A DNA stretch of 11,833 nt. Origin: a virus (Duplodnaviria > Heunggongvirae > Uroviricota > Caudoviricetes). Made by a program: the position numbers and the translations under genes. The DNA lies in the IMG/VR virus record IMGVR_UViG_2778261064_000021, positions 1-11,833 of that record; one strand, written 5' to 3'. The notes under the pieces are model-generated. The model ran no database searches, had not been told where the DNA came from, and worked only from the letters and a program-made list of their open reading frames with translations. Shown here piece after piece: positions 9,381 to 9,516 of this stretch. The stretch's first letter is position 1; each line of letters starts with the position of its first letter.

Positions 9381-9516
9381 CATGTCGGTACTTCTCGCGC
9401 ATAACTGTTTGTTTTTATTAAAATCAACCACCAGAAACATACGACATCATAAAGCCCAAAAATCCTGTTTTTTTGGCGTTTCATGTCGGAACTGGTTTTT
9501 GATAAGGAATTGATAG
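9299..9516 (+). other. cos1: lambda-like cohesive-end packaging site (cosN-like core plus cosB-like region) directly upstream of terS
   Basis: Collinear with the recalled lambda left end (..CGCGGGTTTTCGCTATTTATGAAAATTTTCCGG..CGTCATAACTTAATGTTTTTATTTAAAAT.. then Nu1); three ATGTCG-core repeats in direct/inverted/direct order (9383-9388, 9442-9447 inverted, 9484-9489), like lambda R3/R2/R1. Confidence 0.6.

Follow-up and report, generated by a model that had tools for sequence, protein, structure and literature searches.

Two cos sites of different cosB class flank the small terminase gene of an Escherichia coli satellite island

Why do some phage-inducible chromosomal islands (PICIs) carry two different cos sites? 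The authors who studied EcCICFT073 left this question open (PMC6092414, PMC6739421), and it is raised again by IMG/VR record IMGVR_UViG_2778261064_000021, positions 1 to 11,833, the whole of which was analyzed and is called the window here. By its sequence, the window is a PICI of the EcCICFT073 family, an E. coli satellite. It contains a cassette made up of a forward cos (cos1), a gene for a small terminase subunit (terS), and a second, inverted cos (cos2), and the two coses have different cosBs. With moderate confidence, and on sequence grounds, we suggest that the cos1–terS–inverted cos2 cassette gives a single satellite two packaging specificities and, with them, a broader helper range.

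The elements of cos1 are as follows.

9300–9310, plus strand: cosQ, GGGTCCTTTCC, matching lambda, phage 21, and Gifsy-1; the equivalent in M81255.1 is annotated as R4
9325–9340, plus strand: cosN, CG / GGGGTACGTGTA / CG, with a 12-nt cohesive end inferred from the line-up with lambda and phage 21
9357–9371, plus strand: I2-like element, TTATGAAAATTTTTC; the equivalent bases are IHF site I2 in M81255.1
9377–9395, plus strand: R3 box, aaagcATGTCGGtacttct, with 14 of 16 bases as in the annotated phage 21 R3, aaatcgtgtcggtact
9400–9429, plus strand: I1-like (predicted IHF) segment, aligning with I1 of lambda and phage 21 (cataactt..tgttttta..)
9435–9450, minus strand: R2 box, inverted, CGACAT being ATGTCG on the minus strand; aligns with phage 21 R2, aaaggtccgacatgaa
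9480–9495, plus strand: R1 box, ttcATGTCGGaactgg, with 13 of 16 bases as in the annotated phage 21 R1, ttcatgtcgggccttg

The comparison rests on the phage 21 head operon record, M81255.1, where three R boxes bound by gp1 are annotated along with an R4 box and the IHF sites I2, I1, and I0; the letters given there are aaatcGTGTCGGtact for R3, aaaggtCCGACATgaa for R2, and ttcATGTCGGgccttg for R1. BLAST of 9200–10400 against phage records matched the phage 21 cos region with 73.5% identity over 477 bp. A motif scan of the window placed ATGTCG at 9382–9387 (plus), 9442–9447 (minus), and 9483–9488 (plus). These elements share 14/16, 11/16, and 13/16 bases with phage 21 R3, R2, and R1 at equivalent positions, and the phage 21 R-box core (A/G)TGTCGG is present at all three boxes of cos1. 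The first-pass annotation had described an ATGTCG core three times, in direct/inverted/direct order, at the positions of lambda R3, R2, and R1, and all of its coordinates were confirmed. Its reading needs one correction, in that cos1 is not private to the island: it has an ordinary phage-21-type cosB, and a 21-type helper could use it directly.

The elements of cos2 run in the opposite direction and are listed by increasing coordinate.

10128–10144, minus strand: R1 box, ttatCAGATCCtttctc, matching Gifsy-1 (cgCAGATCCtttcc), SerU-LTIIb, and L014
10170–10187, plus strand: R2 box, inverted relative to cos2, aaagaaaGGATCTGacag on the minus strand; position and sequence are those of Gifsy-1 R2, gaaaGGATCTGctgg
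10192–10221, minus strand: I1-like (predicted IHF) segment, aligning with lambda I1 and the Gifsy-1-class phages
10226–10244, minus strand: R3 box, aagtCAGATCCgttcttct, in which CAGATCCGTTCTTCTT is invariant across the Gifsy-1 class
10250–10264, minus strand: I2-like element, identical to that of cos1 and inside a 35-bp run common to the two arms
10281–10296, minus strand: cosN, CG / GGGGTAGCCATA / CG, four central-right bases of the cohesive end differing from cos1
10312–10321, minus strand: cosQ, GGGTCCTTCC, from the line-up with the other cos sites

A search with cos2 only matched Gifsy-1 and the E. coli prophage fragment SerU-LTIIb, whose coses read CAGATCC, GGATCTG, and (C/G)AGATCC at R3, R2, and R1. 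In the window, CAGATCC is found at 10134–10140 (minus), 10174–10180 (plus), and 10234–10240 (minus), as the earlier coordinates had it, and read on the minus strand the three copies are direct, inverted, and direct. The Gifsy-1-class core, CAGATCC followed by GTTCTTCT at R3, is present in cos2 in this order. The R3 sequence CAGATCCGTTCTTCTT is invariant in the window, Gifsy-1, SerU-LTIIb, L014, L066, L067, L075, and Providencia (L numbers denote the loci compared), and the R1 sequence AGATCCTTTC is invariant in 8/8 Gifsy-1-class sequences.

Both window sites follow the lambda order of cosQ, cosN-like core, I2, R3, I1-like segment, inverted R2, and R1, with three R boxes of which R2 is opposite to R3 and R1; the cosBs of lambda, φ80, 21, and Gifsy-1 are all ordered R3-I1-R2-R1 (Murialdo & Feiss). 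For line-up, all cos sites were anchored on TTATGAAAATTTT of I2, which is invariant in the ten aligned cos sites, as is the cosQ core GGGTCCTT. At both sites cosQ has the layout GGGTCCTT(T)CC and lies (GGGTCCT...) upstream of cosN. It is this cosQ-overlapping element, GGGTCCTTTCC at 9300–9310 in cos1, that was historically named R4, and M81255.1 assigns the R4-annotated bases to terminal cos cleavage. The earlier proposal of an R4-like element in the fourth CAGATCC-type match, GGATCTG at 9312–9318 (minus), did not survive comparison, since these bases read GGAATCTG in the 99% identical cassette of L004 (strain cq9) and differ in all other relatives; the match is probably due to chance. A CG-flanked 12-nt cosN can be read at 9325–9340 and at 10281–10296 in a register uncertain by 2 nt. 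The CG flanks of cosN are conserved (PMC4669245). This register sets cosN and I2 2 nt farther apart than they are in lambda; the bases can also be read in another register. The cosN of prophage SerU-LTIIb is of the same class as that of cos1.

Sequences from phages and islands were used to align each cosB class, eight diverged members of the 21 class and eight of the Gifsy-1 class. In both alignments the R boxes are islands of conservation, the cos1 R3 being such a conserved block in the 21 class, and the spacers between R2 and R1 cannot be aligned. At both window sites R3 consists of a specificity core and a common GT(T/A)CTTCT. Since the boxes are homologous in position and sequence to those of phage 21 and Gifsy-1, we regard the two repeat families as real cosB elements. 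Together with the covariation described below, this bears out the earlier suggestion that the two families are R boxes of two specificity classes.

The gene between the two sites is the following.

9517–10101, plus strand: island terS, encoding a 194-aa small terminase of the Nu1 family (PF07471, E = 4e-68, profile positions 1–162 of 164; phrog_57)

R1 of cos1 ends at 9495, so that cos1 lies directly upstream of its cognate Nu1-family gene. The island TerS has a winged helix-turn-helix of phage 21 type, VDPRTIERWQT, the phage 21 gp1 sequence being VDPRTIERWQS. In the PDB, 6hn7_B, an N-terminal fragment of lambda TerS, matches residues 1–98 of the island TerS, and 7lwr matches its DNA-binding domain, residues 1–54. 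The DNA-binding domain and core (residues 1–105) are 60–88% identical to phage TerS proteins. The last 40 aligned residues (141–180) are 23–26% identical to lambda and 21 and 42–50% identical to the PhiR5_1/P0044/P0052 class (P numbers denote TerS proteins), and the C-terminal tail, ...DYLMETTGNVPEKLRQQKGE, is seen only in island proteins. The gene is not an Rpp gene, because it encodes a full-length PF07471 protein of 194 aa, Rpps have 135–153 aa, and RppC matches the island TerS only at E = 0.02 over residues 5–54.

Recognition helices and upstream R boxes were read by eye in about 20 TerS/cosB pairs, not all of them independent, and the helix class agrees with the R-box class in every pair, without exception, as follows.

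Helix RTIQNWQ, R-box core GTTTCC: lambda and L017–L028
Helix RTI(E/D)RWQ, R-box core (A/G)TGTC(G/A): phage 21, PhiR5_1, the window, L005–L007, P0033, and P0035
Helix RT(I/V)(T/S)xWQ, R-box core AGATCC: Gifsy-1, SerU-LTIIb, L014, L016, P0034, and P0041

As the island TerS carries the phage 21 helix, cos1 would be its cognate site. The cos2 boxes correspond to the DVRTITAWQ helix class. No cognate TerS with a DVRT(I/V)TxWQ helix lies beside cos2, nor is there another Nu1-like open reading frame (ORF) among the window ORFs searched. It follows that cos2 needs a TerS supplied from elsewhere. Such a TerS is available: of 5,426 complete E. coli genomes, at least 226 contain complete prophages in which a cos of Gifsy-1 type is accompanied by its cognate TerS and, beside that, TerL. 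The earlier proposal that cos2 is the helper-type site is thereby strengthened. The companion statement, that only cos1 sits next to the island's Nu1-like gene, holds in part: the helix makes cos1 the cognate site, but cos2 also abuts terS, in inverted orientation and 27 bp past its stop codon.

The cos arms form a 116-nt inverted repeat (9299–9414 and 10207–10322, 78% complementary) that brackets the ORF at 9517–10101. The identical runs remaining between the arms are of 16 bp and 35 bp, the latter at 9337–9371 and 10250–10284. The window's cosN cores differ from each other (GGGGTACGTGTA versus GGGGTAGCCATA), and cosN cores also vary among sister islands; a molecule cut at cos1 would thus bear cohesive ends that are not interchangeable with those of a molecule cut at cos2. 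In the window segment 10100–10127, which follows the downstream R1, a stretch (TTTCTCAGTTTTGTTCAATAATTGCGCG) is the same in L013, L066, and L075 and resembles the lambda sequence between R1 and the Nu1 start. Because this stretch is constant whichever cosB class adjoins it, cosB modules have seemingly been swapped between constant flanks.

How a cassette with two specificities would work can be outlined from these sequences. We infer that the island TerS binds R3, R2, and R1 of cos1 across an IHF bend and brings the helper's large terminase, TerL, to cosN, so that use of cos1 would lead to rightward packaging of the island concatemer. The cos2 site (10321–10128, minus strand) would go unread by the island TerS and would be read by a TerS class common among lambdoid prophages of E. 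coli and Salmonella. A Gifsy-1-type helper holoenzyme assembled at cos2 would then offer a second route into capsids, leftward, and both routes may be used naturally. Given the inverted arrangement, cos1 and cos2, 0.9 kb from each other, would not be usable as a start/stop pair. Were the inverted arms to recombine, terS would also be spared, with no direct-repeat deletion, and the cassette could flip harmlessly, as in sister islands. Lateral transduction from the two divergent cos sites was considered and dropped, the literature being that cos phages lack lateral transduction.

Comparison with EcCICFT073 places the cassette in its family. In CFT073 the right end of the island reads cos1 (plus), rppA, inverted cos2, and a 94-aa ORF, followed by phoQ. 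The two islands are alike in their backbone (integrase, AlpA-like regulator, primase, SSB, and the capsid and decoration genes c1499 and c1500), in the succession of a forward cos, a small helix-turn-helix packaging gene, an inverted second cos, and the 94-aa ORF, and in having two sites with common cosQ and cosN but unlike cosBs. They differ in that the window gene encodes a full-length TerS of 194 aa rather than an Rpp of 135–153 aa; Rpps lack the TerL-binding tail and heterodimerize with the helper TerS. They also differ in cosB. The window cos1 has a canonical tripartite phage 21 cosB, whereas EcCICFT073 cos1 is described as having only R3, and we read a GACACCACCACCAC motif in it; the Rpp-type PICIs have a cosB with R3 and without I1, R2, and R1 (Murialdo & Feiss). 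As for cos2, that of the window is of Gifsy-1 type and that of EcCICFT073 has three copies of ATGTCCGG. Finally, the window cosN cores are of the CCGGGGGT... class and differ between the arms.

Both coses of EcCICFT073 have phage-like cosQ and cosN, and each works as a cloned site; the part of cos1 to which Rpp-dependent recognition has been mapped is its cosB (PMC6092414, PMC6739421). The EcCICFT073 papers found no recognizable phage cosB in cos2. In our reading, that site (L078 3095–3355; NC_004431.1, about 1388094–1388354) has ATGTCCGG once direct and twice inverted, and ATGTCCGG differs from the phage 21 R box by a single base. Phage 4 of CFT073, the natural helper of EcCICFT073 (L078 39600–40481), has a phage 21 cos and gp1. 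The likeness of EcCICFT073 cos2 to phage 4 is a single, suggestive example of a second site resembling that of a resident helper.

Other systems share parts of this design. As in phage 21, cos1 has the same box order and orientation, the same I2 and I1 positions, and a TerS with the VDPRTIERWQ helix. It is unlike phage 21 in its cosN (GGGGTACGTGTA versus GGGCGGCGACCT), in its cosN-to-I2 spacing (18 nt versus 16 nt, if the CG-flanked register, uncertain by 2 nt, is right), in the C-terminal 40 residues of TerS (26% identical), and in having no TerL gene after terS. The cos2 cores CAGATCC/GGATCTG/CAGATCC, their spacing, and the IHF-like segment are those of the Gifsy-1 type (Salmonella Gifsy-1, SerU-LTIIb, and the ST131 prophage L014). 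In phages of that type cosB directly precedes the genes for TerS and then TerL, the TerS having the DVRTITAWQ helix, whereas in the window it is without its own gene, inverted, and at the 3′ end of a TerS of other specificity. Staphylococcus aureus pathogenicity islands (SaPIs) either encode their own TerS, which redirects the helper TerL (the pac SaPIs), or carry a helper cos (SaPIbov5; SaPIbov4 has two putative cos sites). The island studied here appears to combine both strategies, although the proteins and sites are unrelated, SaPIs live in Gram-positive hosts, and those that encode a TerS rely on headful packaging from pac. N15 and Monarch offer a parallel in the natural diversification of cosB and TerS with conserved cosQ and left half of cosN (PMC4669245); unlike N15, with its single R3, the window island has two complete tripartite cosBs.

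Three considerations weigh against two specificities and a broadened helper range. First, deletion of cos2 from EcCICFT073 raised transfer by lambda and φ80 (PMC6092414, PMC6739421), which means that a second cos can be costly with non-cognate helpers. Second, the C-terminal 40 residues of the island TerS, corresponding to the TerL-binding part of lambda Nu1, have diverged, which makes recruitment of a given TerL uncertain. Third, lambda and 21 discriminate against each other's DNA more than 1,000-fold via TerS–cosB contacts, but the packaging specificities documented by experiment are those of lambda, 21, and N15 only (PMC4669245), and that of Gifsy-1 is a putative separate one.

The pairing of unlike cosBs extends beyond the window. 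Seven cassette types were examined for cosB pairing, and 7/7 combine two different classes. The pairs read are as follows, upstream site first.

Window and P0033: 21, then Gifsy-1
L066: Gifsy-1, then 21
L067: Gifsy-1, then CACCACC
L070: 21-variant, then CACCACC
L012 and L013: GGTGGTGG, then 21
EcCICFT073: CACCACC, then ATGTCCGG

In every cassette whose DNA-binding domain class is known, the upstream cosB matches the encoded domain. The exact window TerS protein is found in the same context at 25 places, and the succession of cos1, terS, and cos2 is kept in islands with TerS proteins up to 13% different (L004–L007 and L079–L090). A scan of genome contigs with a TerS alignment returned only phage-type or distant loci, of 57% identity or less, and no island relatives; these loci served as a phage control set, in which a downstream inverted cos was found at 0/15 phage-type loci. 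Two loci depart from the common layout. L011 has two tandem islands (78 and 10671), each with its own cos and terS and with no second inverted cos. In L079 a third cos-like site, whose cosB is of CATCACCAC type, lies at about 639, where it precedes a K88 fimbrial gene carried within the island.

By sequence, the island TerS proteins are chimeras of an N-terminal part of 100–115 residues, nearly the same as in particular phage TerS proteins, and a conserved island C-terminus ending ...METTGNVPEK.... In TerS P0033, residues 3 to about 114 are exactly those of the phage-type P0044, and the island C-terminus follows. In P0035 the near-identity is to phage 21 gp1 and extends to about residue 101, where the same switch occurs. 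The island C-terminal part is also joined to Gifsy-1-type helices (CDVRTITGWQS in P0034, VDVRTISTWQN in P0041) and, in L013 (8565–9107), to an unrelated N-terminal domain; a search of the PDB with the L013-type TerS gave no meaningful match, and its DNA-binding domain is without a class. The chimeras suggest that cosB and the DNA-binding domain were captured from phages by recombination.

It is tempting to go further and to see in the cassette a modular, invertible unit of specificity that tracks the available helpers, in which a cosB cognate to the island's own chimeric TerS or Rpp is always combined with a cosB copied from another phage class. We offer this only tentatively and think it rather doubtful. 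If true, it would answer why some PICIs carry two cos sites, the reason being a dual helper range, and flipping at cosN could switch terS expression and the direction of packaging.

Among the alternatives to two packaging specificities, one holds that only cos1 matters and that cos2 is a passive relic, left by recombination between an island and a Gifsy-1-type prophage or by tail-to-tail fusion of two cos–terS units. We judge this unlikely. The TerS proteins of the islands are plainly recombinant, as the switches near residues 114 (P0033) and 101 (P0035) attest, and with lambda and φ80 as helpers cos1 of EcCICFT073 is essential and cos2 is not (PMC6092414, PMC6739421). Parts of an island-type cassette also stand directly after prophage lysis genes at two loci: in L066 (1–3353), an island TerS C-terminus with an inverted 21-type cos, and in SerU-LTIIb (L002, 6461–7146), a truncated TerS. 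Both look like products of prophage–PICI recombination at cos, or like an island embedded in a helper. A relic, however, would hardly have kept cosQ, cosN, I2, R3, I1, R2, and R1 of cos2 intact in all relatives read, and less diverged than their counterparts in cos1. A second cos is found in every cassette type except L011, and it is always of a class other than the first, which drift would not maintain; moreover, the cloned cos2 of EcCICFT073 works.

A quite unlikely alternative is that cos2 is a device for interference that titrates the helper TerS or provokes unproductive cleavage, lowering helper yield while the island is packaged via cos1. Through Rpp, which acts on TerS, PICIs of the EcCICFT073 family do block the packaging of helpers, cos2 matches a helper class rather than the island TerS, and deleting cos2 of EcCICFT073 alters transfer efficiency. 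A decoy, however, needs only cosB. The conservation of cosQ, cosN, and I2 fits real cleavage and packaging, and cleavage at cos2 would cut the island concatemers too.

Equally improbable, in our estimation, is that the inverted arms serve mainly as an inversion switch, setting the sense of terS relative to the late operon and the cosQ and cosN to which each cosB is joined; with such a switch, a population would contain two packaging states. Flipped cassettes do occur. L075 and L074 have flanks 99.35% identical, and the 930 bp between their CCCGTTACGGGGCGGCGACCTCGCG copies are 100% identical but flipped, which places the breakpoints within cosN, in its 25-bp core. Among the places where the identical TerS protein P0033 is encoded at the phoQ site, terS is co-oriented with the capsid genes at 10 and reversed at 6. 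A GGTGG/21 cassette has flipped independently (L012 10613–11550 versus L013 8390–9328), and L007 and L079, on a ProQ/PerC backbone, have opposite cassette orientations. A cassette inversion is likewise seen between L076 and L077. Against a switch in this island, the window TerS allele is co-oriented at 25/25 places read and the window cosN cores differ at four bases, so that flipping is not a property of this island; two complete cos sites are present in either orientation; and neither within the cassette nor beside it was a serine or tyrosine invertase gene found. The flips are explained, without a selected function, by occasional homologous recombination in the common arm. Alternatively, terminase might cut both identical cosNs, with religation to follow: both cohesive ends of the excised cassette would be of left type and both of those on the backbone of right type, and either orientation could then reanneal.

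The idea that the R-box repeats are chance short words in AT-rich intergenic DNA, encouraged by 226/400 shuffles in which some 7-mer or other occurred three times in a 110-bp cluster and by 8 copies of ATGTCG across the window against 5.8 expected (no enrichment), has a vanishingly small probability and is ruled out by the homology of the boxes, in position and sequence, to the annotated phage 21 and the Gifsy-1 boxes, by their being invariant blocks in otherwise diverged sequences, and by the rarity of the specific clusters in shuffled windows (ATGTCG 1/400, CAGATCC 0/400). With some 7-mer clustering in so many shuffles, repeat statistics are weak by themselves, hence our reliance on positional homology.

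Two cos sites with different cosBs are already a published property of the EcCICFT073 family. Within the literature searched, three features appear to be unreported: the replacement of the Rpp gene by a chimeric, full-length TerS gene; the membership of both cosBs in canonical phage classes, along with the pairing of two classes in every cassette type examined; and the clean cos–terS–cos inversion in sister islands, with breakpoints inside cosN. No paper combining PICIs, cos sites, and inversion was found in the searchable literature. A satellite's helper range sets the spread of its cargo, virulence and defense genes included. The island and its relatives offer a testable answer to the two-cos question, namely a site for the satellite's own subunit together with a copy of the site of a common prophage class. 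They also provide leads in a natural table of TerS helix and R-box specificities with at least four classes, in TerS proteins built from a phage N-terminal half and an island C-terminal half, and in an inversion polymorphism at cosN that is clean and easily assayed.

The cassette belongs to an island of about 11 kb and is set among the following features of the window.

1–1227: integrase
2344–2670: AlpA/excisionase-like regulator (phrog_2790)
4274–6079: D5-type primase
6610–7032: SSB
7497–8552: lambda gpE-like capsid protein (PF03864)
8565–8900: gpD-like decoration protein (PF02924)
9266–9296, plus strand: terminator-like hairpin and T-run, with perfect 10-bp arms (9266–9275 and 9280–9289)
9300–10321: cos–terS–cos cassette
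10367–10651, plus strand: 94-aa ORF at the distal flank of the cassette (phrog_1561, E = 1.8e-47)
From 11297: chromosomal hpt

The hairpin closes the capsid/decoration operon, directly ahead of cos1. A promoter and terminator consensus scan of 9150–10450 gave nothing above shuffle expectation and did not list the hairpin. The 94-aa ORF is conserved, adjoining the cassette in EcCICFT073 and in most sister islands read; a Pfam search with it and the other small ORFs gave no match. Beyond the island's own gpE-like capsid and gpD-like decoration genes (7497–8900), no virion genes were found among the window genes, and there are no genes for TerL, portal, protease, or tail. Deletion of the homologues c1499 and c1500 from EcCICFT073 is without phenotype. 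Just downstream of the primase gene, at 6093–6315, (T/G/A)GGTGAACAG occurs ten times, with copies on each strand; window-wide, the motif has 12 matches against 0.7 expected, and the array is very likely the island's iteron replication origin.

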